A DNA stretch of 14,900 nt. Source: a virus. A model generated the notes under the pieces. It made no database searches and had not been told where the DNA came from. It saw only the letters and a program-made list of their open reading frames with translations. Shown in pieces: positions 3,380-14,900 of this stretch (its first letter is position 1; every line of letters begins with the position of its first letter). The translations under genes and the position numbers were made by a program. The stretch lies in UHGV virus genome UHGV-0189183; one strand, given 5' to 3'.

Positions 3380-3652
3380 TCAGACAGGGATTTGCTGGCG
3401 GCTTGATAACTTTGATGCAGAGCCATAGCGATTGAGCGTTTGCTGTTGTTTTTCCGGCATTTGTGCTTTGTCTGATTCCTGTTCATTGCGCCGGGGCTTC
3501 ATAATTATCTTATCCACACTTTCCAGAGCGGTAAATGTGCAGGAACATTCAAGATTCTGGCACTGATACCATGAGCGTTTAACCGACGGTGCTTCATAGG
3601 CGGTGGTTCTGGCGTGTGCAACGGTGCCGCATTCAGGACATTTCAGCGCCAT
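3380..3652 (-). CDS. Ogr/Delta-family zinc-finger late-gene transcriptional activator
   Basis: 90 aa. C-x2-C-x22-C-x4-C arrangement (CPECGTVAHART...YQCQNLEC) closely matches the P2 Ogr / P4 Delta pattern. Confidence 0.85.
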   Translation of the reverse strand: MALKCPECGTVAHARTTAYEAPSVKRSWYQCQNLECSCTFTALESVDKIIMKPRRNEQESDKAQMPEKQQQTLNRYGSASKLSSRQQIPV

Positions 3653-4413
3653 CAGATACCCTCCATATCACGGTTACGTTTCTGCAGCTCTTCACGTTCC
3701 TGACGGATCTTCATTTTGTGAAGGGCCGCCGGTGACGGGATTTTGCTTAAATCGACACGAGCCGCATAATCCGGCGCAACGCCCGCCAGTTTAAACACAG
3801 GGTCCAGTTCCGGCATCGCAGTGTTAGCAAGAGCCGGTTTGGTGATATGTTTGTGAATAAAGTCTTTCAGCAGTGTGTCCGGGTCATTAACTGAATTCAC
3901 CACCCCCACAACGGCACTGGCTTCCCGCCCCATTGTGGTTTTGAGCAGGCTCAGTGTCTGGATTAACGCCTTACCATGCGCCTGCATGAAGTCTTCCCAG
4001 ATTTGCTTTGCGCGAATTTCCACAAGGGTGTTATGTGCGCTGATATACTGCCCGGCTAATTTCCCGGCTTCCTGCGGTAATAAGGCATTTTCGCTTTCCT
4101 GAGCTGCCAGCAGTTCATCAAAATCCTCAAGCGTTTCTCGTCCCAGCGCAATTTCCGTGCGCAGTTTTTTCATTTCCTTTGAGACTACGCCCTGACTTTC
4201 ACGAAACAGCGTGCGCCACTCCTCATTCAGCGCGTTCGTCGTGGCTTCCATTTCAGCCCGGCGCTGGCGGATTGTCGCAATATTATCCGCTGCCGCTTTC
4301 TGCCGACGACGTGCTTCAAGCCATGCGCTTCTGGCCGTGTTCAGGGTTTCCATTGCCTGCTGCGTTACAGCCGGAAAAGTGGAAAGGTTGTTATTCTCTG
4401 CGGTGTTGTTCAT
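3652..4413 (-). CDS. Sid/Psu-family protein (P4 capsid-size determination / polarity suppression family)
   Basis: 253 aa, strong AGGAG ribosome-binding site before the ATG at 4413. Immediately upstream of the Ogr/Delta-like gene, as sid is in P4. Helical, charge-rich sequence resembling my recollection of P4 Psu/Sid. Which paralogue it is cannot be resolved. Confidence 0.6.
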   Translation of the reverse strand: MNNTAENNNLSTFPAVTQQAMETLNTARSAWLEARRRQKAAADNIATIRQRRAEMEATTNALNEEWRTLFRESQGVVSKEMKKLRTEIALGRETLEDFDELLAAQESENALLPQEAGKLAGQYISAHNTLVEIRAKQIWEDFMQAHGKALIQTLSLLKTTMGREASAVVGVVNSVNDPDTLLKDFIHKHITKPALANTAMPELDPVFKLAGVAPDYAARVDLSKIPSPAALHKMKIRQEREELQKRNRDMEGI

Positions 4414-4447
4414 GACTTCTCCTGCCGGGTTGGTTCGTTACGTCAAT

Positions 4448-4465
4448 TGTGTCGTGACTGACACA
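4448..4465. promoter_or_regulatory. Dyad TGTGTC-N6-GACACA (TGT-N12-ACA type) upstream of the Sid/Psu-like gene
   Basis: Perfect 6-bp inverted arms. The TGT-N12-ACA layout is that of Ogr/Delta activator sites in P2/P4 late promoters. Confidence 0.4.
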
Positions 4466-4588
4466 AGCGCACTATCGGCGCTCAGTGTGTGGTGGCTGGC
4501 ACAACGGGCGTTTGCGGTTATTCAGACGCGGCCATGACAGCCAGCCAGATAAAAATGCCTCTGTTTCAGCCTGCTTTATGTCCCGGAT

Positions 4589-4787
4589 GCGGTGAAACAG
4601 GTGGAACAGGTGTTACAGCATTGTTTTGTAAAACATTTATATGCACATCACAGGTGAAACATCGCAGGTAACAAGGTGGAACAGCGGATCGGCTGGCGTT
4701 CCACCTGTTCCACCTCACTATTTCAGAAGGTGAAACAGGTTTAGCCCTTGTAAAATACGGGTGTTCCACCTGTTTCACCTGTTACCC
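4589..4787. repeat. Iteron cluster (putative origin / alpha-protein binding sites, P4 ori/crr-like)
   Basis: At least seven copies of GGTG(A/G)AACAG in both orientations, e.g. 4591-4612, 4651-4660, 4675-4684, 4699-4716, 4729-4740, 4763-4782. Reverse complement TGTT(C/T)CACC resembles the P4 octamer TGTTCACC. Confidence 0.65.
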
Positions 4788-4813
4788 TTAATAAATAAGA
4801 CTCACGCAAAGCC

Positions 4814-7486
4814 TTAACCCGGCACCTCGCTGTTGAAGACATAGAGTCTGCGGGGATTCATCTCTGGCGGGCGAATGGTTGTCTGCAGCTTGCCATCGGT
4901 GGAGGGCAGCAGGTATCCACGATCCGCGCACAGACGCGCCACCTTGCGCGGGTCAAATCCCCGGCAGATTTCTTTCCAGCCGGACGGCATGACGTAGAAC
5001 GTGGTGACGGCCTCCGTGCCCTGCGCGGTACTGCCTTTCTCCACCCTGCGCCAGCCCACCATATTGCCGGGGCGGTTACGCTCGTCGTGCCAGTCAGCAA
5101 AGCGGCTGTACTGATTCGCGGTAAAGAAGCTGCGTACCTGCTCCAGTGCGGCAATATCTTCCTGATTGGCGGTGTGCCCGCGATCTTTCAGCCATGCGTT
5201 CAGGCAGACGCGGGTTGCCCGCAGCGCTTCACCCTCAGGCCAGCCGGTAATACCCAGCCGGGTTGCCAGCTCGCCCGCCATCGCCACCAGTGCAAAGCGG
5301 TTCACAGCCCGGCCTACCTGATTACCCGCATCTTTCGGGGTCAGGGCGGCTGTATATTCCTTCATCAGTGACTTTGCCTGTGCCGTCAGCCCGTTAAGGT
5401 CAGCGGTCAGGGCTTTCAGCCACTCCCTGAACGGCGAACCGTAGTAGCTGGACGTGGCCCACTCCAGATGTTCCGCCAGAGCCTTGCCGCTGTCGAAGCC
5501 GTGCAGCTCCTCAAATACGCCAAATTTCCCGGAATCGCTGGGGATCTGGATCATCCTGACTTCCATCCCGGCAAAGGTACGCTCACCGGCTTTTGCCGCA
5601 TGTTCGGTCAGTGACAGCTCGCCGGTTGAAAAGAACAGCAGCCGCCACTGCTTACGGGTGCGCAGCTCACCGTCCGTACCGGCACGGCCCTTGCCCTGAC
5701 CGTTTGCCAGCATGTAGGCGATATTACCCGCCTCGCGTCCGTCCACCTCCCGGATCTCATCAAGCATCATGGCGGCATCGTTGCGGCGGCTGGCGCATCC
5801 CTCCAGCGCGTTGCCGGTTGCCCGCCACGTCTGCCAGTAATCAGGCCCGCCACAAACGGAGGTTGCCGCTTTCATGGTGGTGGTCTTACCGTCAGTCGAT
5901 TCCCCCTTGAGGTGGTAGCCGCCGCCGTCCATCCCAACCAGCCGTAACAGGGGTGCAGCAAAGGCCAGACTGACGGCAAACGCCACGCGGGAGTTACCGG
6001 TGCAGTAACGGGAAACGTGCTCCCGCCATTCCTCCGTTGTACCTGACACACGGAAATCGCGCCCCTGCACGGAAGTGGTCTGGAGAATGACACCCTCTGC
6101 ACCTTCACCGCTGACCTCATCCTGCAGGACGTAAACCTGACCATGCCAGCCAGTGCGGCTGACGCAGGTCACGCGGCGTTCCGGTTTACACAGCGAGATA
6201 TATTCCATCAGGCGGGCGCGGGCCTCACCGGTGGTGCTGATATAGGACAGCCCGTTAACCAGCAGTACCCGGCGTAGTTCCTCACCGCTACCACTGAGCA
6301 TTTCCATCGGCATCGCCCAGCGGCGGCGCTCTCCCCATGTATCTTCCCACTCCAGCAGTCGCCCGAAATTACCGCCATCAGCATCGCAGGTGATTGCCGT
6401 CACGCGCAACGGGTTGCATATTTTGACGTTCTGGATCTCCGTCTCACCGTTGCGCTGTACCTGTTTTTCATACCAGAGATATTCCTGGGTAAGACGGAAC
6501 CCGTGCGGCAACTGCGTGCGGCCTTCTCCGCACAGTACAAGACCGTTACGAAAGGCTTCACGGGCACGTGTAATACCGTGCTCACGGTGGAAGTCATTCC
6601 AGTCAGCTTTAATTTCTCCCGGTGGCAGCGTCACCCAGCCACCGACTGATTTTGCCGCCCGTTCAGCAAAGGATCTGCCGGGATTCTCGCCCCCGTCCTG
6701 AAAATCGTTATCACCGGCGATGATAATTTTTACCTCAGGCCAGCGTGCCCGCAGCGCCTGTGCGACGTTGGGCAGGTTGCCCGCCGATATGGCCGCCACT
6801 ACGCATCCGGCGGTGAGCTGGCTTACCGTCAACGCCGTGGCGTAACCTTCGGTAATCACCACCTGTACCGGCGGTTCAGACGGTAACGGGCTGAGCGCCA
6901 CAAACGCGCCTTTCATCGTGCTGCCGGGCAGTATGCTTTTTTCACCCGTCGGGGCGATAAGCTGTGCACCGGTCACGGCTCCGGCGTTTGTCGTGAGCGG
7001 TAACAGCAGGGAACCGGCAGGGAAATCCTTACCACTGATATGCTGCACGCTCCCGGTCAGGGAGGCCGGGTATCCGGCGAACCCTTTTCCGGTCAGATAG
7101 GGGCTTTCTCCCGTGTGACTCTCTTTCATCAGGGCCGCCACGGTAAGGCTCATATCGCGTTTAGGGGCTTTTTGCCTGGCGGGCTTAACGGGCAGTTCCT
7201 GCACATCCGGCACATTAAGCACCTGCGCCACCTCCTGCGCTGCCTTTCTGATGCCGTAACCGGTTATGAGCTTAACCAGATCCAGACCATCACCATTGCC
7301 GCACTGGCTGCAAATCCACGTCCCGCGCCCGTCGAGGTCATCGAGGCGGAAGCGATCCTTGCCCCCACATTTCGGGCAGGGACCGTGCCTGCCGTTTTCA
7401 GGTACATCAATACGCAGCATCTGCAGAATGACGGGCCATTTTCCCCGCGCTGCGGCTGAAATCTGCGTAACCGTCTGTGTTGTCAT
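4814..7486 (-). CDS. P4 alpha-type primase/helicase replication protein
   Basis: 890-aa ORF. N-terminal zinc-binding motif CPKCGG...CSQCG. Large size and position in the replication operon next to the iterons match P4-family alpha proteins. Confidence 0.85.
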   Translation of the reverse strand: MTTQTVTQISAAARGKWPVILQMLRIDVPENGRHGPCPKCGGKDRFRLDDLDGRGTWICSQCGNGDGLDLVKLITGYGIRKAAQEVAQVLNVPDVQELPVKPARQKAPKRDMSLTVAALMKESHTGESPYLTGKGFAGYPASLTGSVQHISGKDFPAGSLLLPLTTNAGAVTGAQLIAPTGEKSILPGSTMKGAFVALSPLPSEPPVQVVITEGYATALTVSQLTAGCVVAAISAGNLPNVAQALRARWPEVKIIIAGDNDFQDGGENPGRSFAERAAKSVGGWVTLPPGEIKADWNDFHREHGITRAREAFRNGLVLCGEGRTQLPHGFRLTQEYLWYEKQVQRNGETEIQNVKICNPLRVTAITCDADGGNFGRLLEWEDTWGERRRWAMPMEMLSGSGEELRRVLLVNGLSYISTTGEARARLMEYISLCKPERRVTCVSRTGWHGQVYVLQDEVSGEGAEGVILQTTSVQGRDFRVSGTTEEWREHVSRYCTGNSRVAFAVSLAFAAPLLRLVGMDGGGYHLKGESTDGKTTTMKAATSVCGGPDYWQTWRATGNALEGCASRRNDAAMMLDEIREVDGREAGNIAYMLANGQGKGRAGTDGELRTRKQWRLLFFSTGELSLTEHAAKAGERTFAGMEVRMIQIPSDSGKFGVFEELHGFDSGKALAEHLEWATSSYYGSPFREWLKALTADLNGLTAQAKSLMKEYTAALTPKDAGNQVGRAVNRFALVAMAGELATRLGITGWPEGEALRATRVCLNAWLKDRGHTANQEDIAALEQVRSFFTANQYSRFADWHDERNRPGNMVGWRRVEKGSTAQGTEAVTTFYVMPSGWKEICRGFDPRKVARLCADRGYLLPSTDGKLQTTIRPPEMNPRRLYVFNSEVPG

Positions 7487-7866
7487 ATTTCCCCCTGATA
7501 CAGCGATACACCCGAGCTGCAGAAGTCATCAAATGCCGCCGGAAGTGTGCGGTACAGCTCCGCCATCACTTCACAGCCGCGCACAGTCAGTACCGGTGGC
7601 GCGGTCAGCAATGATGGCTCCAGCATGTCAGTCAGCAGCGCCAGTGCAGCCGCTGCTCCCTGTGCTTCGCCATATTCGTTAATCAGTGCGCACTCGATAT
7701 GCAGGGCAATGGCCATTTCAATACGTTCAACCGTCAGGCTGTGCGGACCATAGTGATCGCAGCCGGTTTCGGTCAGCGCTTTCTGGCGCCAGGCCGATGC
7801 AATAGCCCGCCGGTAAAGCGCAGTGGTCATTTCTGCCGGAAAAATAGAAACCTGCGGCTGGTTCAT
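7483..7866 (-). CDS. Hypothetical protein, replication-operon member
   Basis: 127-aa ORF. Stop overlaps the alpha start and its start overlaps the upstream gene stop (translational coupling). Confidence 0.5.
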   Translation of the reverse strand: MNQPQVSIFPAEMTTALYRRAIASAWRQKALTETGCDHYGPHSLTVERIEMAIALHIECALINEYGEAQGAAAALALLTDMLEPSLLTAPPVLTVRGCEVMAELYRTLPAAFDDFCSSGVSLYQGEI

Positions 7867-8147
7867 TGGGTGCCTCCTTCAATCAGTTCGCAACTGTGCG
7901 CAATATCCGTCAAATCTGCCCGCAGGTACTCCATCAGCGCGGCGATGCCTGGCGCACATCCTGCATCCAGCGTTCCGCCCTGCGAGGGGTATTCAGAAAA
8001 GAGAAGCTGCAACATGTCGCAGGCCTTTCTGGCGCGGTCCAGCTTTCCGAAACCGTCCTCTGACAACCCATACGCAAAAGCACCGCTATTGTGTTTTTCA
8101 GGCAAAGCGTGGCCCTGAGCACCGTTGTGCCCGTTTGAAATATTCAT
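7863..8147 (-). CDS. Hypothetical protein, replication-operon member
   Basis: 94-aa ORF, co-oriented and overlapping the next gene by 4 nt. Confidence 0.45.
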   Translation of the reverse strand: MNISNGHNGAQGHALPEKHNSGAFAYGLSEDGFGKLDRARKACDMLQLLFSEYPSQGGTLDAGCAPGIAALMEYLRADLTDIAHSCELIEGGTQ

Positions 8148-8178
8148 CGTGGATTACTCCGTTTTCAGCGGTGTTTTG

Positions 8179-8538
8179 TCAGAGAAACTTTGAATAGTGA
8201 CTGTCGTCAGGTTCAGCAGAACGCCGTATGCTGCGCTCCCGCCAGCGGGTAAATACCACCGACGGATGCAGCGTCAGCGAGCCAGAGCCGCTACCCCCCG
8301 CGGGAGCTAGCGAAGGTTTAAAGAGCGGGGCATTAAACAGGCGCGTATACCGCTGCTCAAACCATGCCAGAGGGCAGGAAGAAAGCTTATTGTCGCTGTC
8401 ATGACGAATCAGCACTTCACAGCTGAATTCAGGGTTAACCAGCGCCACGGAGGGCGAGGCTTCAGTTAATCTGATAATCGTGACAGTCCAGCCACGCTCA
8501 TGCTGCCAGCGTTCGCCGGGTTGCGGATAATTACGCAT
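8179..8538 (-). CDS. Hypothetical protein (start moved to the ATG at 8538)
   Basis: GGAGGTGA ribosome-binding site 5 nt before the ATG at 8538. Overlaps the upstream gene stop by 8 nt. Confidence 0.5.
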   Translation of the reverse strand: MRNYPQPGERWQHERGWTVTIIRLTEASPSVALVNPEFSCEVLIRHDSDNKLSSCPLAWFEQRYTRLFNAPLFKPSLAPAGGSGSGSLTLHPSVVFTRWRERSIRRSAEPDDSHYSKFL

Positions 8539-8707
8539 GTTCACCTCCACAGGGAATGCGACCGGCAAAGCTCAGCACATAGTCCGGGGCAAGTCTGCGC
8601 CGCGCTGAGCGCTCGTTATCTGCGGTGATCCTTAACATCACAGGACGGGCATTGCGTTGACTGCGGTTGATCGCCGCAAATAACCAGGTACACTTCTGTT
8701 TAGCCAT
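8531..8707 (-). CDS. Small P4-family protein, first gene of the leftward operon (possibly Icd-like; uncertain)
   Basis: GAGGT ribosome-binding site before the ATG at 8707 (MAKQKCTWLFAAINRSQ...). About 58 aa. The longer ORF-track start at 8761 has no ribosome-binding site. Confidence 0.4.
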   Translation of the reverse strand: MAKQKCTWLFAAINRSQRNARPVMLRITADNERSARRRLAPDYVLSFAGRIPCGGEHA

Positions 8708-8790
8708 TTTCGTTACCTCATCTAACGCTTTGGTCAGACGCCTCGGCAGTGCCGCAAACACTCCGGGGCGTTGCTATTTTGATTCCTTGT

Positions 8791-8836
8791 GTGTAATGTG
8801 TCATTACACATAAGCACATTACAATAGGTGTAATTG
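8791..8836. promoter_or_regulatory. Operator-like array of TGTAATG/CATTACA half-sites in the divergent promoter region
   Basis: GTGTAATG (8791-8798) and CATTACAC (8802-8809) form an inverted repeat; CATTACA (8817-8823) and TGTAAT (8829-8834) form a second. The array overlaps the AGGTG ribosome-binding site of the RHH gene. Confidence 0.5.
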
Positions 8837-8838
8837 AC

Positions 8839-9018
8839 GTGTCAACACACAAGAACGAAAGACGTGGTAATCCACCATTCCAGTTCAGACTTGACCCTGA
8901 ATTGCGTGAGTTAATGGAAGAAGCACAGCAGCAGGATGGTGATGAATCACTGGCTGCTTGGATCAAACGCATTATCCGCAAAGAGCTACAAAGTCGTGGT
9001 TCCGAACCAAAGAACTGA
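8839..9018 (+). CDS. Ribbon-helix-helix (Arc/MetJ-type) small DNA-binding protein, GTG start; not in the supplied ORF track
   Basis: 59-codon ORF, GTG at 8839 preceded by AGGTG at 8826-8830, stop TGA at 9016-9018. The N-terminal segment PPFQFRLDPELRELMEEAQQQ is typical of an RHH beta-strand and first helix. Confidence 0.5.
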   Translation: MSTHKNERRGNPPFQFRLDPELRELMEEAQQQDGDESLAAWIKRIIRKELQSRGSEPKN

Positions 9019-9026
9019 TAAATACA

Positions 9027-9056
9027 TGGGGAAGATTTTCTTCTTTCCCATTTTTC
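9027..9056 (+). terminator. Weak terminator-like hairpin plus T-run after the RHH gene
   Basis: GGGAAGA / TCTTTCCC imperfect stem with one bulge, followed by TTTTT at 9051-9055. Confidence 0.3.
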
Positions 9057-9069
9057 TAAGGTCGTCATA

Positions 9070-9279
9070 TTATTTATCAGCATCTGAGGATTGAGCTTTT
9101 ACCCACTGTCTAATTTCTTGTGCATCGTAAACAGTTACCCGTTTTGAAATACGTGTGGATTTTGGAAATTCAGGATTGTTTTTTTCCCAGCGCCAGAGAG
9201 TAACTGTGCTTACTTGCAAAAAGTCAGCAGTAGCCCGTGGGCGGGCATGCCCGGTGATAGGGTAAGTTTTTAATGTCAT
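9070..9279 (-). CDS. alpA: AlpA-family transcriptional regulator / excisionase-like protein
   Basis: 69 aa. The segment FLQVSTVTLWRWEKNNPEFPKSTRISKRVTVYDAQEIRQWV matches the AlpA (MerR-like helix-turn-helix) family pattern. Confidence 0.75.
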   Translation of the reverse strand: MTLKTYPITGHARPRATADFLQVSTVTLWRWEKNNPEFPKSTRISKRVTVYDAQEIRQWVKAQSSDADK

Positions 9280-9287
9280 GAAATTAC

Positions 9288-9315
9288 CTGCCGTGTTATG
9301 TAATGAACACGGCAG
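9288..9315. promoter_or_regulatory. Perfect 10-bp inverted repeat CTGCCGTGTT-N8-AACACGGCAG directly upstream of alpA
   Basis: The loop contains TGTAATG. On the minus strand the 3' arm includes the probable alpA ribosome-binding site (AGGT). No flanking T-run, so more likely an operator or translational-control hairpin than a terminator. Confidence 0.45.
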
Positions 9316-9386
9316 ATGATGGCAAGGTTAGGGCTAAATTATCAGTGCCACTATTTTGTTTTTATGATGGTATAAAATATTACCAC

Positions 9387-10439
9387 TTAAAATCTTCCTG
9401 CTTTAGATGAGCTAAGACATTCTTTTATCTTATCTTTTCCAAGTTCAACCTTTGTTTTTGGATTGTTTCTTTCTGCCACGATTTTATCTGCCCACGCGTC
9501 AATAGTCAGTTTTCCTCGTTTTCCATTGCAAGATGCTGGGTCATTTAGTAACCAATAAATAGCTGCTTTGTACACTGCCTCTCTTTTTGTTGCTGATGCT
9601 TCAACATTACCATGCACTCTTCGGATGCTTTCGATGCTGGATACACCACCATTCACATAGCTGGGTAGCTCTTTGCCAACACCGTTATCTAATTTTTCTA
9701 TTTGGTATCTTGTTAAATAGATATCATCCAGTGTTATATTTCCAATAATATTTTTATTAGATGGAGATACTAATCCCTCTATTGATGATAAGCCTTCGAA
9801 AGGGGACATTGCTAATATTACCCACTCATCACTGCCAAATGCAGCATTAGTGAATGGCATATTAGCTTCTTTAAAAGAAATATCATGTGCTAATAGCCTT
9901 GCTTTACCATATACCTTTAGTTCTTTGTATAATGAAGATGTTGGGCTGATGACACATATAGACCACAATCCAGAAAGTAAGATTAATGGGCTTTTTATAT
10001 TTGGTTTGTTTTCTAAATGGTATATTTGTTTTGGAGGTGAAAATGGCTTATCTTCTGTATAATCAATATCGAATTTTGCTTTTGGTATGAAATGGCTTAA
10101 TGCAGATTTATTACTATAGTTTAATACTCTGGGTGGGTACATGTTTTCCCAATCTTTAAAATCTCCACCTTTACGCATCATCATTAGCGCAGCTTCGAAA
10201 CCATTTAATTCTAAGCAAAATTCGATAATTCCAATTTGAGCAAAATGGATAAGGTCATCAATTTGGCAATTAAGTAGTTCAGCAGCTCGTTTTAGGGAGC
10301 AAAATTCCATTACAGGAATACTATTCCTTTCCCAAACATTTAATCGTGTATTATCGCTCATCACGTCACCTGTATGCACATATGGTAAAATGGGGCGAAT
10401 AGCAGACTTTACTACTATTAGCCATTTTCTTATTTTCAA
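9387..10439 (-). CDS. Hypothetical AT-rich cargo protein between integrase and alpA (alternative start at 10361 with AGGTGA ribosome-binding site)
   Basis: 350-aa ORF whose first codon overlaps the integrase stop. Conspicuously AT-rich. No family recognised by eye. Confidence 0.6.
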   Translation of the reverse strand: MKIRKWLIVVKSAIRPILPYVHTGDVMSDNTRLNVWERNSIPVMEFCSLKRAAELLNCQIDDLIHFAQIGIIEFCLELNGFEAALMMMRKGGDFKDWENMYPPRVLNYSNKSALSHFIPKAKFDIDYTEDKPFSPPKQIYHLENKPNIKSPLILLSGLWSICVISPTSSLYKELKVYGKARLLAHDISFKEANMPFTNAAFGSDEWVILAMSPFEGLSSIEGLVSPSNKNIIGNITLDDIYLTRYQIEKLDNGVGKELPSYVNGGVSSIESIRRVHGNVEASATKREAVYKAAIYWLLNDPASCNGKRGKLTIDAWADKIVAERNNPKTKVELGKDKIKECLSSSKAGRF

Positions 10440-11707
10440 ACAACGCGTAGTTTTTTCATTTTATAGGGGGCAATATATCTATCAGTGTTAGCTTCAATAT
10501 AATTAGACCACCATTGCATCATCCGACGACGTTCATGCATATGCTGAGCTAAGTGTACATAAGCGGCTCGCACTTCATTTCGTTCTTGATGGCTCATTTG
10601 CCGTTCTACTGCATCCCTCGACCATAAGCCTGATTCTGTCAGGGCTGAGCACGCCATTGCCCTAAATCCATGAAGGCAAATGTCCACCTGCGTGTCGTAC
10701 CCCATAATTCTTAATGACTTATTAACTGTGTTCTCACTCATTGGTTTGTAAGGGTTACTATCTCCGGGGAAAATAAGTTCATACTCACCACTTATTTTTT
10801 TAATAGCTTCGAGAACATCAATAGCTTCATTAGATAATGGAACATAATGAATACTGCCCATTTTTGCCCCACGCTCTGAATATTTTACCCCATCAATTCT
10901 TTTTCTTTGAGCAGGAATAGTCCACATTGCATTTTCAAAATTAATTTCCTCCCATCTTGCGTGTCTCAGTTCACTGGAGCGAACAAAAGTATGAAGAGAA
11001 AATAATACTGCCAGCTTAGTTAACGGCCTCCCTGTATAGCTATCAATTTTTGATATTAATTCGGGTAATCGTTCTAACGGAAGTGCAGGGCGATGCTTTA
11101 TTTTGGGGCTGGAAATTGCTCCTCTTAGATCATGGGTAGGATTGTATTCAACAATTCCACGCTGAATAGCGTACCGGAAAACGCTTGCAAGAGTAGTTTT
11201 CACTCTTCCTGTTGTTGCTCCAATTCCCTGATCACTCATCCTCACCAATAATGGCAACAGGTCACTTGTTTTTAATGAGTCGATGGGTTTATTTCCGATA
11301 TATGGGAAAATATGATTTTCCATTTCTCTTAAAATTTTAGTGCGGGTAATCTCTTTCCATGAGGGATGGCCTATAGAGCCTTTATGCCACTCTAAAGCGA
11401 TTGTCTGGAATGTAGCAGAGGCGGGTTCTGTTGGCGCTGCTTTTTTAGATACTCTGGGATCAACACCGTCGGCTAAAAGTTGCCTTGCTTCATCTCTACG
11501 CTTACGGGCAAGTGCCAGCGAAACGTCTGGGAAAACGCCCAAAGCCAGCGTAGCTTGTTTGCCGTTAAATCTGTAGTTCATTCGCCATGCCTTGGTCCCG
11601 TTCTTTTTAACTAAAAGATACAGGCTTCCCCCATCCGTCAGTTTGTAGTCTGTTTCTTTGGGTTTAGCGTTTTCAACTTTCTTGGGTGATAGCTCATTTA
11701 GTGCCAT
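10436..11707 (-). CDS. int: P4-type tyrosine integrase (site-specific recombinase)
   Basis: 423 aa. N-terminal arm-binding-type region (YKLTDGGSLYLLVKKNGTKAWRMNYRFNGK) and C-terminal catalytic region (HGFRAMACS...VERQMSH...RAAYVH with the tyrosine). Immediately adjacent to the tRNA gene. Confidence 0.95.
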   Translation of the reverse strand: MALNELSPKKVENAKPKETDYKLTDGGSLYLLVKKNGTKAWRMNYRFNGKQATLALGVFPDVSLALARKRRDEARQLLADGVDPRVSKKAAPTEPASATFQTIALEWHKGSIGHPSWKEITRTKILREMENHIFPYIGNKPIDSLKTSDLLPLLVRMSDQGIGATTGRVKTTLASVFRYAIQRGIVEYNPTHDLRGAISSPKIKHRPALPLERLPELISKIDSYTGRPLTKLAVLFSLHTFVRSSELRHARWEEINFENAMWTIPAQRKRIDGVKYSERGAKMGSIHYVPLSNEAIDVLEAIKKISGEYELIFPGDSNPYKPMSENTVNKSLRIMGYDTQVDICLHGFRAMACSALTESGLWSRDAVERQMSHQERNEVRAAYVHLAQHMHERRRMMQWWSNYIEANTDRYIAPYKMKKLRVV

Positions 11708-11728
11708 GGAGAGTAATCTTTGTTGTCA

Positions 11729-11779
11729 GTTGATGGTATCGGTTTATCGAACCGTGAGTACCATCAACGATACCATCAG
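11729..11779. repeat. Putative integrase arm-type sites between int and the tRNA
   Basis: TGATGGTATC (11731-11740, inverted), TACCATCAAC (11759-11768) and GATACCATCAG (11769-11779); same motif as 439-460. Confidence 0.5.
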
Positions 11780-11891
11780 AATCATGTAATGTCATGAAAT
11801 CAACTGAAACCATGTTCAAGGCGACAGGCCCTGATTTTGCTGGTTTTAAGGGGGGAGGTGAAGTGTGTTGAAACGTGATGAAATGAAAAGG

Positions 11892-11966
11892 TATTGTCCC
11901 CTGCAGGAATCGAACCTGCAATTAGCCCTTAGGAGGGGCTCGTTATATCCATTTAACTAAGAGGAC
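11892..11966 (-). tRNA. argW: tRNA-Arg, anticodon CCU (argW-type); the three nucleotides after the discriminator read ATA, not CCA
   Basis: The reverse complement, read from 11966 (5' end) to 11892 (3' end), gives GTCCTCTTAGTTAAATGGATATAACGAGCCCCTCCTAAGGGCTAATTGCAGGTTCGATTCCTGCAGGGGAC-A-ATA. It folds as a cloverleaf with a CCU anticodon and a TTCGATT T-loop. Confidence 0.85.
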
Positions 11967-11977
11967 AATGCGGCATG

Positions 11978-11983
11978 AGTATA
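11978..11983 (-). promoter_or_regulatory. Probable -10 hexamer (TATACT) of the tRNA promoter with GC-rich discriminator
   Basis: On the minus strand GGGTATACTCATGCCGCATT immediately precedes the tRNA 5' end. Confidence 0.4.
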
Positions 11984-12041
11984 CCCGCTAATGGAGTGCG
12001 GGGTAAGTACGCTGCCGCTCGATTGCTTAAACCCTCGCCAT

Positions 12042-12974
12042 TTATGCCGGGTTTTTATAATTTTTCTTAATGTTTTCCGCACGTTCTGCTTTTTGGCGTG
12101 CTTCTGCTTTACGCTTATTGCTCATGTCGTTACGAATCTGTGCATGACTCATTAACGCGAAGATAAAGGTGCCGCCGCAGATGTTCCCCGCTAAAGTAGG
12201 TAGTGCGAAGGGCCAGATGAAATCGCTCCAGTGCAGCGTACCGTTAAACACCAGATAGAGGATTTCAACAGAACCGACCACGATATGGGTGGTGTCACCC
12301 AGGGCAATAAGCCAGGTCATCAATATAATCACCACAATCTTTGCCGCACCCGCTGCAGGAAACATCCAAACCATAGTGGCGATCAGCCAGCCGGAAATGA
12401 TCGCGTTGGCAAACATCTCGCTGGGGGTGTTCTTCATCACATCCATGCCGATTTTGACAAATGCATCGCGAGTTTCTTCATTGAAGATAGGCATATATTC
12501 AAATGCCCACGCCGCAATACCTGTCCCGAGAATATTACCCAGCAGCACGACGCCCCATAACCGTATAAGTAAGCCGACGTTGCTCATTGTCGGTTTTTGC
12601 ATGACGGGTAGTACCGCAGTCACGGTATTTTCGGTAAATAATTGCTGGCGGGCCATAATGACGATAATAAAACCAAAGGTATAACCGAGATTCTCCAGCA
12701 AGAAGCTGCCCGGCACACCTTCCAGTTCGACTTGAAATATCCCTTTTGCCAGTAACGAAGCGCCCATCGACAGACCCGCCGCAATGGCTGACCACAGTAG
12801 CGCCATTGCGTCGCGTTCCAGCTCTTTTTCACCATCCTGGCGGATATGCTCATGAATTGCCATCGCCCGGGAGGGGAGTCGGTCTTCATCTATTTCTATT
12901 TTTTTGCCGCGCTCTTTTTCTTCGCTCTCAACTTCAATTTCGTCGCTGTGTTGATCAATTTTGTCGTTGTCCAT
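12042..12974 (-). CDS. yfdC: Formate/nitrite transporter (FNT) family inner-membrane protein, YfdC-like
   Basis: 310 aa. Acidic N-terminal tail followed by multiple hydrophobic transmembrane segments. Sits between tRNA-Arg and mlaA as in E. coli. Confidence 0.75.
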   Translation of the reverse strand: MDNDKIDQHSDEIEVESEEKERGKKIEIDEDRLPSRAMAIHEHIRQDGEKELERDAMALLWSAIAAGLSMGASLLAKGIFQVELEGVPGSFLLENLGYTFGFIIVIMARQQLFTENTVTAVLPVMQKPTMSNVGLLIRLWGVVLLGNILGTGIAAWAFEYMPIFNEETRDAFVKIGMDVMKNTPSEMFANAIISGWLIATMVWMFPAAGAAKIVVIILMTWLIALGDTTHIVVGSVEILYLVFNGTLHWSDFIWPFALPTLAGNICGGTFIFALMSHAQIRNDMSNKRKAEARQKAERAENIKKNYKNPA

Positions 12975-13267
12975 GGTCTCTTCTCTTGAATTAGCACGTA
13001 TAGCTAAAGCGTAGCGGCTTTTTTGCTCGCAACTGACGGGAGTTACTCTGAAAATGTAGAAAAGGCTGCGTTTGCCTTTTTCTGTTTCTATAGAATCAAG
13101 TAGCCTACAGGGCGGCGATTACCAGGCTATGATCAAATCAGCAAATCAGGGCGTCTGGACATCAGTTGACGTGCTGTTACAATCGCCCACACCTAAACAG
13201 GCGGATACGGTATCGTTCCGTCATGGATGGCAAACTGCATAAGCCATAAAAAAACAGGGAGACATTT

Positions 13268-14023
13268 ATGAAGCTTCGCCTGTCGGCGCTTGCTCTGGGA
13301 ACTACGCTTCTGGTGGGGTGTGCGAGTTCCGGTACAGATCAGCAAGGGCGTTCTGACCCGTTAGAAGGGTTCAACCGCACCATGTACAACTTCAACTTCA
13401 ACGTATTAGACCCGTATATTGTTCGACCGGTCGCTGTCGCCTGGCGTGATTATGTTCCGCAACCGGCGCGTAATGGTTTGAGCAACTTTACTGGCAACCT
13501 TGAAGAACCTGCGGTGATGGTTAACTACTTCTTGCAGGGCGACCCTTATCAGGGGATGGTCCACTTTACCCGCTTTTTCCTGAACACCATTTTGGGGATG
13601 GGCGGCTTTATTGATGTTGCAGGGATGGCGAACCCGAAACTGCAACGGACTGAACCTCACCGCTTCGGTAGTACGCTTGGTCATTATGGCGTGGGTTATG
13701 GGCCTTACGTTCAGTTACCGTTCTACGGTAGCTTCACGCTGCGTGATGACGGTGGTGATATGGCGGATGGTCTTTACCCGGTTCTTTCCTGGCTGACCTG
13801 GCCGATGTCTGTGGGTAAATGGACGCTTGAAGGGATCGAAACCCGCGCTCAGCTGCTGGATTCCGATGGTCTGCTGCGTCAGTCGTCCGATCCTTATATT
13901 ATGGTGCGCGAAGCGTACTTCCAGCGTCATGATTTCATCGCTAATGGCGGCGAACTCAAACCGCAGGAAAATCCGAACGCACAAGCGATTCAGGATGATT
14001 TAAAAGATATTGATTCTGAATAA
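13268..14023 (+). CDS. mlaA: Outer-membrane lipoprotein MlaA (VacJ), phospholipid asymmetry maintenance
   Basis: 251 aa. Lipoprotein signal peptide with lipobox LLVGC ending at Cys18. Sequence and length match MlaA/VacJ as I recall it. Confidence 0.85.
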   Translation: MKLRLSALALGTTLLVGCASSGTDQQGRSDPLEGFNRTMYNFNFNVLDPYIVRPVAVAWRDYVPQPARNGLSNFTGNLEEPAVMVNYFLQGDPYQGMVHFTRFFLNTILGMGGFIDVAGMANPKLQRTEPHRFGSTLGHYGVGYGPYVQLPFYGSFTLRDDGGDMADGLYPVLSWLTWPMSVGKWTLEGIETRAQLLDSDGLLRQSSDPYIMVREAYFQRHDFIANGGELKPQENPNAQAIQDDLKDIDSE

Positions 14024-14031
14024 GAAACAAA

Positions 14032-14064
14032 TAAAAAAGGTGAGTCGCAAAACTCACCTTTTTT
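14032..14064. terminator. Bidirectional rho-independent terminator after mlaA
   Basis: A-run, stem GGTGAGT (14039-14045), loop CGCAAA, stem ACTCACC (14052-14058), T-run 14059-14064. Confidence 0.65.
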
Positions 14065-14204
14065 GTTGTTATCCCTCAATTACCACAAGTAAAAGGAGAT
14101 AAACCGACAATGACCTAGACGTAATTATGTAAAAATACTGATGTTCGTCACTGACTATTTCCGATATTCAGCTGTTGAAAAATCAAAAAACTGGAAAAAT
14201 AATT

Positions 14205-14900
14205 TTAAATATCATCAAAATTAACACCTGGCGCAGATGGTTGATTAATTTCATTTTGATATTCAGCCTGGCGATTTTGAAGCCTTTCTTCAATTTTACC
14301 TTCGAGATCCTTAAAATGCTTATATATTTTTTGAGAATGGCCAACGTTAATTTTGTTACCGACTAAAGTAGAAACTATTTCTTTTAGATGGTCGCATTTA
14401 TATTTTGCATCGTCCACTTGAAAATCATATCTTATTGCTCGACCATAACGTTTAAAAACGTCGTTTGGTTCTCTCAGTCTTTCCCCGTTGAGCTCGTTTA
14501 CAACCTGATGATCGGAACCAGTTGCAAATGATTCTGCCATGATAGCTTTACTGCTTTCAAACCACGCTGAAGCACTCCTGGCGTTTTCACTACAATATTG
14601 GGTGAGACTATCACCATTAATACGAATTCCTCTTTGAATGTGGTAGTCGTCCTGATCGTAGTAACCGAGAGATAAGTAATCATTTCCGTTTTTATTTTTA
14701 ATTACAATAGCGAGAGAGTCGCCTTTTTTATCTTTACCGTACCAGGTAAATAAGTCCGTTGGTTCGCTTTTCCCGCTCTCATCAAATTCCGTTACCGTAT
14801 GTCTGAGTTTGTGTGATATCTTATCGAAGATAAAACCAGGATCTCCATCATATATTTCTTTTAATGCGCTGAAGATCATTTCCTTGTTATTGATATCATG
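14205..14900 (-). CDS. 3' portion of an AT-rich hypothetical gene continuing beyond the window end (position consistent with yfdF of E. coli)
   Basis: Frame stays open upstream of the ATG at 14879 to the last base of the window. AT-rich coding sequence convergent with mlaA. Confidence 0.5.
   Translation of the reverse strand, partial: HDINNKEMIFSALKEIYDGDPGFIFDKISHKLRHTVTEFDESGKSEPTDLFTWYGKDKKGDSLAIVIKNKNGNDYLSLGYYDQDDYHIQRGIRINGDSLTQYCSENARSASAWFESSKAIMAESFATGSDHQVVNELNGERLREPNDVFKRYGRAIRYDFQVDDAKYKCDHLKEIVSTLVGNKINVGHSQKIYKHFKDLEGKIEERLQNRQAEYQNEINQPSAPGVNFDDI

Follow-up and report, generated by a model that had tools for sequence, protein, structure and literature searches.

What does the AT-rich gene lodged between the integrase and alpA of a P4-like satellite do: is it accessory cargo, as was first supposed, a repressor-like, immunity or defence protein, or a component of the satellite's own mobility apparatus? 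We take up this question for the virus genome UHGV-0189183, from which the whole stretch of 14,900 nucleotides analyzed here (the window) is drawn, and use the name X for the gene at issue. How helpers are sensed and AlpA is switched on in Gram-negative satellites is an open question according to the papers describing PICI and PICMI elements (PMC6092414, PMC10803314).

Gene X and its true start

The element is integrated at argW, carries psu-like and delta genes, and has the canonical P4 cargo hotspot at its other end, beyond delta, where it is occupied by a DUF4062 gene. A 16-nt copy of the tRNA 3' end (372-387) was rejected as a candidate attR, as it lies inside an IS903-family transposase gene, judging by the offset to the annotated record. 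The integrase-proximal end is arranged as follows:

11894-11967, minus strand: tRNA-Arg(CCT), argW, the integration site, in the neighbourhood of yfdC, mlaA and fadL
10436-11707, minus strand: P4-type tyrosine integrase (int) with Arm-DNA-bind_3, Phage_int_M and Phage_integrase domains, immediately upstream of X
10362-10439, minus strand: non-conserved 5' extension of the longest X ORF, from a TTG overlapping the int stop; contains AGGTGA (10366-10371)
9387-10361, minus strand: X coding sequence, 324 aa, from ATG 10361 to stop TAA 9387-9389; RefSeq WP_024235423.1, 'hypothetical protein'
9070-9279, minus strand: alpA, AlpA-family regulator or excisionase (Pfam Phage_AlpA, E 8e-7), immediately downstream of X

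The longest ORF at the X locus (9387-10439, minus strand, 350 aa) begins with a TTG (10439-10437) that forms TTGA with the integrase stop TGA (10438-10436). From this overlap the preliminary description had entertained translational coupling, while also pointing to an in-frame ATG at 10361 behind an AGGTGA ribosome-binding site (10371-10366). It is the latter that proves the better start: AGGTGA and ATG are invariant in the Klebsiella and Pantoea orthologues and are the sole invariant elements when the 5' region is aligned with loci L021 and L023, whereas neither the TTG nor the 26-codon extension is conserved, L023 lacking the latter. The RefSeq annotation of X is likewise 975 nt long. As judged from this conservation, the true start is almost certainly ATG 10361, giving a protein of 324 aa, and not the TTG. 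The TTGA overlap, though present, would then be a by-product of choosing the longest ORF in this element. Coupling to int is unlikely here because 75 nt separate int from that ATG; an ATGA overlap does occur in relatives. A match to a promoter consensus at 10485-10458 is a candidate promoter for X.

The claim of sharp AT-richness against GC-rich neighbours holds for X itself, which has a GC content of 35.0%, but not for the neighbours, int and alpA being at 42.1% and 42.4%. The GC-rich part of the element begins beyond them, at 8179-9069 (51%), with the primase at 60%. Against its Klebsiella and Pantoea orthologues X has a dN/dS of 0.07-0.10, similar to the values for int and the primase; X is a real gene under strong purifying selection.

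A large family without annotation

Searches with X against Pfam, NCBIfam and PADLOC-DB (0 families in the latter) returned no match, and the same was true of a tblastn search against 50,697 phage records and of a PDB sequence search with two X profiles. The lone family match was a weak, N-terminal one to phrog_7144, a family of unknown function (E 4e-5). Profile searches, in contrast, recovered relatives in at least 423 clusters (defined at 50% identity) at E <= 1e-3, with 131 at E <= 1e-10; these proteins are nearly all 260-350 aa long and their identity to X runs from 99% down to about 20%. A profile search for relatives in Vibrio gave Enterobacterales only, and a search for related loci with an 11-sequence X alignment gave four genome loci. 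By the measure of these searches, the X family is large, very divergent and unannotated, having no Pfam or NCBIfam model. The earlier reading of the ORF as one of no recognizable family is thereby borne out, together with its status as a gene.

A conserved, predicted DNA-binding head and a hypervariable core

Conservation across the family, which is high at the N-terminus, variable in the middle and moderate at the C-terminus, divides X into three parts:

10182-10325, minus strand: residues 13-60, conserved N-terminal region, predicted winged helix-turn-helix (HTH), with near-invariant R25, A26, L30, C32 and D36
9750-10181, minus strand: residues 61-204, hypervariable middle domain, beta-rich, with many indels (mean conservation 0.62 bits, occupancy 0.65)
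9390-9749, minus strand: residues 205-324, conserved linker motif followed by a helical C-terminal domain (conservation 1.56 and 1.13 bits, respectively)

The middle domain has a single near-invariant residue, G131, in a GLW motif, and the linker motif (residues 205-240) reads ...DDIYLTRYQIEKL...LPSY. The C-terminal domain is common to the second E. coli allele described below, and in some relatives the alignment indicates its replacement by a different C-terminal module. A structure model built from a 141-sequence alignment (pLDDT 90.8, pTM 0.79) replaced an earlier one from 11 sequences that was too poor (pLDDT 51). The structural relatives of the 141-sequence model are MerR-family, Xis and other winged-helix DNA-binding domains only, all of them matching the N-terminus, while Foldseek searches against PDB and BFVD gave no fold match for the middle and C-terminal parts. 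The Pfam MerR and HTH_17 profiles have no significant match to the N-terminal domain, and the alignment of the X profile with that of AlpA by hhalign, although in register, is not significant (E 0.14). What comes after the HTH in the model is a long beta-strand (49-59) and then the beta-rich domain, and not a long dimerization helix. On the strength of this model the N-terminal domain is predicted to be a MerR/Xis-like winged HTH. The repressor-like, immunity or defence roles floated at the outset fare unevenly in this light: the winged HTH keeps a DNA-binding role viable, but no known defence model is matched and no enzymatic or toxic domain is recognizable in X.

One gene family in the int-alpA slot

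The preliminary description took the integrase-proximal slot for a second site at which accessory cargo accumulates. What we find instead is a single family, co-oriented between a P4-type int and alpA, in every related element examined. A scan of 13 related loci showed the order int > X > alpA of the window, all on the same strand, in 11 of them; it recurs in loci L018-L020 and in L032, where X overlaps int by ATGA. In L036 X again overlaps int by ATGA, and a putative alpA-like reading frame lies downstream. The ATGA-overlapping genes of these fis-integrated elements match the X profile (6.8e-36 in L032 and 3.9e-16 in L036). The elements with this order span P4-like satellites, AntA/Bro-N/DUF927 islands, PICI-like elements and fis-integrated PICMI-like elements, and their hosts include Escherichia, Klebsiella, Pantoea, Enterobacter, Scandinavium, Brenneria and Zobellella, the Zobellella member sitting in an element that ends at fis. 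Further named members of the family come from Aeromonas and Rheinheimera.

Because the gene order is kept in 11 of 13 loci, the int-alpA slot is not a cargo hotspot, and annotators should be wary of scoring it as a defence hotspot. X, being always in this slot, is more likely to be a DNA-binding partner of an excision or activation switch than random cargo. A single large unannotated family occupies the slot across several satellite types. X is not, however, an invariant core gene. Satellites of very different kinds keep the family and its place, yet the sequence itself is hypervariable; the slot is empty in EcCICFT073, a functional PICI, and some fis-integrated elements lack X. In locus L037 an ATGA-overlapping gene is unrelated to X. 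Conversely, X-like genes lacking both int and alpA persist intact at argW in Klebsiella grimontii and Klebsiella spallanzanii, with a dN/dS of 0.079; this persistence suggests a role for which neither int nor alpA is needed.

An experimental precedent for a gene in this position comes from the PICMI satellites of Vibrionaceae, in which an integrase-overlapping or integrase-contiguous gene (iolg/icg) has been described (Nat Commun 2024, PMC10803314). In the Vibrio element PICMI115, iolg is flanked by int and alpA, its start sharing ATGA with the end of int; deleting it, with int left intact, abolished excision, packaging and transduction, and the study's authors suggest an excision complex made up of Int, IOLG and AlpA (PMC10803314). 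The iolg/icg genes were reported to fall into 13 families (PMC10803314). Because these families are so many, and because the L037 gene is unrelated to X, position alone is no proof of common function.

Allelic replacement with sharp edges

Satellites at argW in E. coli carry two X alleles, one of 324 aa (10 genomes) and one of 293 aa (all four other genomes inspected), both AT-rich (34-35% GC). The satellite of the window occurs, for example, in E. coli strains Evo1 and EC1515. The two alleles are only 24% identical, and yet they are homologous by hhalign (probability 99.7%). A blastn comparison of the window with the sister E. coli argW satellite L002 delimits the exchanged segment:

9318-10487, no strand assigned: replacement block: the final 50 nt of int, X and a further 69 nt beyond the X stop
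9338-9393, no strand assigned: imperfect dyad adjoining the X stop, with arms at 9338-9357 and 9374-9393 that are 75% complementary and 16 nt apart

Across the block there is no nucleotide similarity to L002, while the flanks are 89-91% identical and the edges sharp; in all other E. coli genomes with this alpA block, homology ends exactly at 9317. The alleles of X swap independently of int and alpA, which are themselves about 87-89% identical, and such independence is not expected of a tight physical partner of either. Two finer associations were rejected: the Int C-terminal tail does not co-vary with the X allele, as L010 pairs a window-like tail with a different X, and the X C-terminal domain and downstream DNA do not travel together, just 95 nt of coding sequence being common with L008.

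In six loci the X stop is followed within 0-15 nt by a significant inverted or direct repeat (each p <= 0.013), the copies of which are separated by 17-21 bp. The window, L002 and L010 combine the same AlpA type with three X types and three different dyads, that of the window being a weaker counterpart of the strong allele-specific dyads found after X elsewhere. L021 and L023 largely conserve the sequence at 9338-9393, but in L021 its dyad character is not clearly retained, and a conserved X-stop hairpin in the window allele was discarded on that account. These repeats could simply be terminators.

The perfect inverted repeat at 9288-9315, once read as bracketing the ORF, is real but belongs to the alpA leader:

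9283-9320, minus strand: inverted repeat or hairpin in the alpA leader, CUGCCGUGUU, 8-nt loop, AACACGGCAG

Its perfect 10-bp arms (9288-9297 and 9306-9315) flank the 8-nt loop, 72 nt past the X stop and directly before the alpA ATG. Folded as RNA, it has a 12-bp stem (-18.4 kcal/mol, z = -3.9), and the likely Shine-Dalgarno sequence of alpA, 8 nt before ATG 9279, coincides in part with the 3' arm. The hairpin is identical in L002 and L021, contains a G.U pair in L023, and shows one compensatory G-C to A-U change in L010. The inverted repeat is part of the conserved alpA block and not of the variable block.

Alternative functions for X

The best-surviving alternative is that X protects against phages or helpers, as a defence or exclusion protein expressed in the quiescent satellite and recognizing phage components through its middle domain. 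In keeping with this are the hypervariability of X, the replacement of its alleles within conserved flanks and the AT-richness of both; its position beside int, which suggests expression in the quiescent state; the intact argW copies in the two Klebsiella species; and the unmatched middle and C-terminal folds, which leave room for an effector function. Nevertheless, X matches nothing in PADLOC and its slot always holds one family, unlike known hotspots with their unrelated systems; the P4 hotspot of the element is elsewhere, filled by the DUF4062 gene; and the most conserved part of X is a domain of DNA-binding type. Further, the PICMI115 gene in the equivalent slot affects excision and not defence, the defence gene of that element being up2. 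We regard a defence function as doubtful, though a serious contender.

An Stl-like master repressor is unlikely. Such a protein would silence the satellite from operators before alpA and be released by a helper protein acting on its variable domain, with the alleles defining induction or immunity groups. Stl is transcribed divergently, whereas X is co-directional with alpA; further, no part of X is more conserved than the DNA-binding domain, a poor fit to allele-specific operators, and the X copies without alpA are still maintained. Deletion of iolg in PICMI115, if it is the equivalent gene, abolishes excision and does not render it constitutive. Despite this, the succession of an N-terminal DNA-binding domain and a variable one is that expected of a repressor; the allele-specific dyads between X and alpA co-vary with X and not with AlpA; and X swaps as a unit with its downstream DNA, as a lambdoid immunity region does. 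The published literature also knows of no global repressor for Gram-negative PICIs (PMC6092414).

Finally, that X is purely an architectural recombination-directionality cofactor, binding att-proximal DNA in an excisive intasome with Int and AlpA and having no regulatory or sensing role, is improbable: its strict adjacency to a P4-type integrase, the coupled synthesis implied by the ATGA overlap in some relatives and the complex proposed for PICMI speak for it, but the same int (about 89% identical) and argW att site work with two X alleles of 24% identity, known directionality factors do not resemble a three-domain protein of 324 aa whose core is hypervariable, and X copies without int are conserved.

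A proposed role in helper-triggered excision

Hence, we tentatively favour the view that X is not cargo but a DNA-binding protein locked in position beside the integrase, a member of the satellite's integration and activation module that would act as cofactor or regulator when a helper triggers excision by way of AlpA. Briefly, we advance the following plausible course of events. Encoded downstream of int, X would be made in the quiescent satellite. Its conserved N-terminal winged HTH might then bind DNA in the X-alpA interval, for which the allele-specific dyads are candidate sites, while the hypervariable middle domain would set the specificity of each allele for a helper-phage signal or partner. 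The outcome would be the licensing of helper-triggered, AlpA-dependent excision, with X either helping to switch on alpA or joining an Int-AlpA excision complex. This model agrees with the behaviour of PICMI115 iolg, the sole experimentally studied gene in the same slot, provided that the two are equivalent (PMC10803314).

Beyond this excision cofactor lies a bolder and rather unlikely extension, namely that in X we have the switch, so far missing, by which Gram-negative satellites sense their helper: to a conserved DNA-binding head would be attached an exchangeable, rapidly evolving sensor of new fold, which would recognize a helper-phage protein and so control alpA and excision. If this were true, the X alleles would define which helpers induce a satellite, and X would be a functional analogue of SaPI Stl assembled from unrelated parts and common to P4-like, PICI-like and PICMI-like elements. 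The helper-sensing question becomes directly testable in E. coli now that X has been mapped into domains and confidently modelled, and that candidate DNA sites and natural pairs of alleles within near-identical satellites are available.

Comparison with known systems

Set beside the Xis/AlpA/TorI excisionases, which are small single-domain proteins of about 55-90 aa, X is 4-5 times longer, has two extra domains of unmatched fold, and lacks a significant match to Phage_AlpA, HTH_17 or the AlpA profile. From MerR-family regulators it differs in having no coiled-coil dimerization helix after the HTH and, again, no match to Pfam MerR or HTH_17. YfjH of the E. coli K-12 prophage CP4-57 recalls X in being a 318-aa protein of unknown function encoded in the int-alpA interval of a P4-integrase island; it lies, however, on the opposite strand and was rejected as a homologue, there being no sequence similarity (best BLASTP E 0.54). 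The defence-hotspot cargo of P4 satellites consists of unrelated genes between int/att and the psu-delta-sid operon, whereas X occupies the int-alpA slot and has homologues there in related elements.

The HTH of SaPI Stl is of the XRE type, and its gene is oriented divergently from those that it controls. X resembles Stl and the PICI Rpr proteins in being encoded beside int, in having an N-terminal DNA-binding domain followed by a highly divergent one, and in differing in allele among otherwise related islands; sensing of a helper protein would also fit its hypervariable middle. In contrast to Stl, X has a predicted MerR/Xis-like winged HTH, is co-directional with alpA in all loci, and shows no sequence or fold similarity.

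The closest parallel is with the iolg/icg genes of PICMI satellites, which share with X the order int > gene > alpA, the same slot and strand in an int-alpA-primase satellite, and great sequence diversity. The X element differs in being a P4-like satellite at argW and not a minimal fis-integrated int-alpA-primase island. The PICMI genes overlap int by 1, 4 or 13 nt or are contiguous with it, and X, with its conserved ATG 75 nt after int, would be of the icg ('contiguous') type. A search for PICMI115 iolg by way of the published primers found none in viral contigs and only chance single-primer matches in metagenome contigs. The likening of PICMI115 IOLG to X is one of position; sequence relatedness is seen for the iolg-type enterobacterial genes of L032 and L036, X family members of fis-integrated elements that overlap int by ATGA exactly as iolg does.

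The satellite and its integrase-linked gene

The window is a segment of the E. coli chromosome bearing a P4-like satellite integrated at tRNA-Arg(CCT), the argW site. RefSeq carries the identical region in its annotation of strain Evo1, where the product of the ORF between the integrase gene (int) and alpA, here termed X, is a "hypothetical protein" (WP_024235423.1).

Features of the window
11894-11967, minus: tRNA-Arg(CCT)
10436-11707, minus: P4-type integrase (int)
9387-10361, minus: X, between int and alpA
9070-9279, minus: alpA
After alpA in minus-strand order: Icd-like gene and two small genes
Between the small genes and the primase in minus-strand order: DUF5375 gene
4814-7486, minus: Toprim/DUF927 primase
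After the primase, minus: Psu-like gene, then Ogr/Delta-like gene, then DUF4062 gene
811-1938, plus: P2-type portal gene (P2/PBSX-type), adjoining the satellite

The sole gene opposing the satellite's main direction is a small one at 8839-9018 (+) between alpA and the Icd-like gene, labeled in RefSeq as hypothetical or YlcI/YnfO family. An IS903-family transposase (1-~540) also adjoins the satellite, and in Klebsiella michiganensis (L021 16922-18975) the same satellite borders P2-type tail genes (gpE, tape measure). No far att site was located in the window satellite; 16 nt at 372-387 that repeat the 3' end of the tRNA were discarded, since the offset to the RefSeq record places them inside the IS903-family transposase gene. 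A 20-nt stretch over the alpA start (CAGGTAATTTCATGACATTA, 9271-9290) has a second copy with two mismatches at 11787-11806, between the tRNA and int and ~80 nt before int begins; the pair may be fortuitous (expected number ~0.2) or may represent a binding site common to both places.

The preliminary description had placed a 350-aa ORF at 9387-10439, and this frame is indeed present, its TTG overlapping the int stop as TTGA. Of the two starts considered, the ATG at 10361 behind AGGTGA holds up and the TTG with its extension does not: only the former is invariant in the K. michiganensis and Pantoea orthologues, and hence we take X to be 324 aa (9387-10361). X is AT-rich (35.0% GC), as had been noted, but its neighbors are not GC-rich, with int at 42.1%, alpA at 42.4% and values of 51-60% only beyond alpA. 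The dN/dS of X is 0.10 against the Klebsiella orthologue (88% amino acid identity) and 0.07 against the Pantoea orthologue (82%), similar to the int and primase values; X is thus a real, functional gene.

A large, hyper-divergent family with a DNA-binding-type head

X had been described as lacking a recognizable family signature, and searches of Pfam, NCBIfam and PADLOC likewise returned no match; nor did any of 141 relatives meaningfully match Pfam. Its sole library match is a weak, N-terminal one to phrog_7144, a family without known function. A word-based search recovered 15 relatives, and a full HMMER profile scan of 1.84 billion representatives recovered 423 clusters at E <= 1e-3; 131 of these pass E <= 1e-10, and lengths are almost all 260-350 aa. 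Named hosts include Escherichia, Salmonella, Klebsiella, Pantoea, Enterobacter, Citrobacter, Cronobacter, Brenneria, Sodalis, Aeromonas, Zobellella and Rheinheimera, and every named member is labeled "hypothetical". Together these constitute a large, undescribed and hyper-divergent family.

Residues 13-48 are very conserved (2.4-2.9 bits), with R25, A26, L30, C32 and D36 nearly invariant; residues 61-204 are poorly conserved (0.62 bits) with many indels; residues 205-240 are conserved (1.56 bits) and the C-terminus moderately so (1.1 bits), its module differing in some members. In the AlphaFold2 model built from 141 sequences (pLDDT 90.8, pTM 0.79), an N-terminal helix-turn-helix bearing a beta wing is followed by a beta-rich middle and then by a helical C-terminal domain. 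X is predicted to combine a DNA-binding-type head with two domains of unrecognized fold.

A fixed slot with replaceable alleles

Our key result is that the order P4-type int, X, alpA, on one strand, is found in every informative locus. A systematic scan found it in 11 of 13 loci, the exceptions being two Klebsiella argW loci with an X-family gene but without int and alpA. It recurs in a further two E. coli argW satellites and, judged by annotation, in three more; in Klebsiella and Pantoea argW satellites; in islands beside yicC with AntA or Bro-N, DUF4222, DUF927, ProQ and SSB; in short metagenome contigs; in a Brenneria island; in a Zobellella island ending at fis; and in Enterobacter and Scandinavium loci. 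The slot is sometimes empty, as in some fis-integrated elements and in EcCICFT073, which has only a 366-bp gap where the window satellite has X.

The window allele occurs in only 10 of 5,426 complete E. coli genomes. A query spanning the alpA block matches 76 genomes, 63 of them within an 80-90% identity band; in all records of this band among the matches listed, homology to the window ends exactly at 9317. All four inspected E. coli genomes of that set carry a 293-aa gene in the slot, low in GC like X (33.7%), and recovered by the X family profile at 99.7% probability. The two satellites share 91% identity across 3679-9317 and 89% across 10488-14900, and no nucleotide similarity is detectable across 9318-10487. 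The preliminary description had called for a check of whether the interval varies among argW elements: it does in sequence, as two homologous alleles (24% identity, E 5e-19). This block marks the allelic replacement of a module, rather than in-place divergence or a hotspot with unrelated inserts. A promoter-like match on the minus strand (10458-10485; CTGATA, 16 nt, TAAAAT) lies inside the int end, on the boundary of the replaced block, and therefore X might bring its own promoter with its block, the match being to the consensus only and no commoner than chance.

The earlier view of the slot as a site of accessory cargo does not survive, as related elements hold X-family members there: X is not hotspot cargo, and satellites of several kinds in Gammaproteobacteria have its family locked between int and alpA.

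Repeats flanking X

In six loci a strong inverted repeat starts 0-15 nt 3' of the X stop (each p <= 0.013 versus shuffles), with further copies spaced 17-21 bp. The repeats are allele-specific (GGAGTTTTC/GAAAACTCC; CGGAATTAT/ATAATTCCG; GTTCCGATTTC/GAAATCGGAAC; TCCGGTAAG/CTTACCGGA): the window, its sister E. coli satellite and a third related locus (L010) share one AlpA type, yet have three repeats paralleling three X types. Such repeats may serve as X operators or else as int-X transcript terminators without U-tracts. In the window allele the counterpart dyad is weak (75%), and the Klebsiella orthologue does not clearly retain it as a dyad.

The inverted repeat at 9288-9315, previously thought to bracket X, is real and above chance; it instead lies directly before the alpA start, in the conserved alpA block, its 3' arm carrying the likely alpA ribosome-binding site. 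The corresponding leader hairpin (9283-9320, z ~-4) is kept across X alleles (L002, L021, L023, L010), with one compensatory change in L010 and one G.U pair in the Pantoea satellite L023. Stems over the ribosome-binding site also precede alpA, though not everywhere, in three distant islands (L006, L009, L015). Conservation of the hairpin across X alleles, together with different stems in the same place in these islands, points to translational control of alpA or to a dyad operator at its promoter.

Proposed role and comparison with known systems

The best-supported mechanism, which we advance tentatively and by analogy, is that X acts as an integrase-linked DNA-binding cofactor or regulator licensing helper-triggered, AlpA-dependent excision, with its variable domain setting specificity. 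X may alternatively have a defense role. Counter-evidence to the excision mechanism comes from argW loci lacking both int and alpA, where intact X-family genes (257 and 253 aa) whose C-terminus differs lie ~490 nt from the tRNA (K. grimontii, L011 7001-7774; K. spallanzanii, L012 6992-7753). Their dN/dS of 0.079 at dS 1.5 indicates purifying selection. They reflect either use independent of int and alpA, which would favor a defense-type or trans-acting role, or separate and recent orphaning. X may also be an Stl-like repressor, or purely architectural in excision.

The DUF4062 protein (321 aa, 1968-2933, minus, ~36% GC) is encoded directly beyond the Ogr/Delta-like gene, a position equivalent to the known P4 defense hotspot; its profile match is phrog_15411, a family without known function, and no PADLOC model recognizes it. 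This gene is more likely than X to be the defense cargo of the window satellite. After delta in the Pantoea satellite (L023 15865-18781) lie a 274-aa unknown gene, an AAA_21 ATPase and an RloB-like protein, likely a defense module in the canonical hotspot.

The excision proposal draws on the Vibrio satellite PICMI115, whose integrase-overlapping gene iolg, sited between int and alpA, overlaps int by ATGA; its deletion with int preserved abolishes helper-induced excision, packaging and transduction (PMC10803314). Such int-linked genes occur in 25 of 35 PICMI subfamilies, comprising 13 families of unknown function, and joint action of Int, IOLG and AlpA in excision was proposed (PMC10803314). 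ATGA-overlapping genes of IMG/VR fis-integrated elements match the X profile (L032, 6.8e-36; L036, 3.9e-16), and proteins identical or close to the former are recorded in Enterobacter, Citrobacter, Cronobacter and Salmonella. In a third such element (L037 4219-4550) the gene overlapping int by ATGA has an N-terminus unrelated to the X family; thus, the int-adjacent slot serves more than one family. Functional transfer from PICMI115 IOLG to X would rest on position and the family membership of analogous genes.

Neither a separate sid nor a full-length psu pair was recognized in the window satellite (3380-11707), and its Klebsiella relative has two Psu-family genes. The usual P4 order is int, hotspot, psu-delta-sid, alpA, epsilon, alpha (PMC8628076); in contrast, the window satellite has int next to alpA, and its Psu-like and Delta-like genes follow the primase in a single direction.
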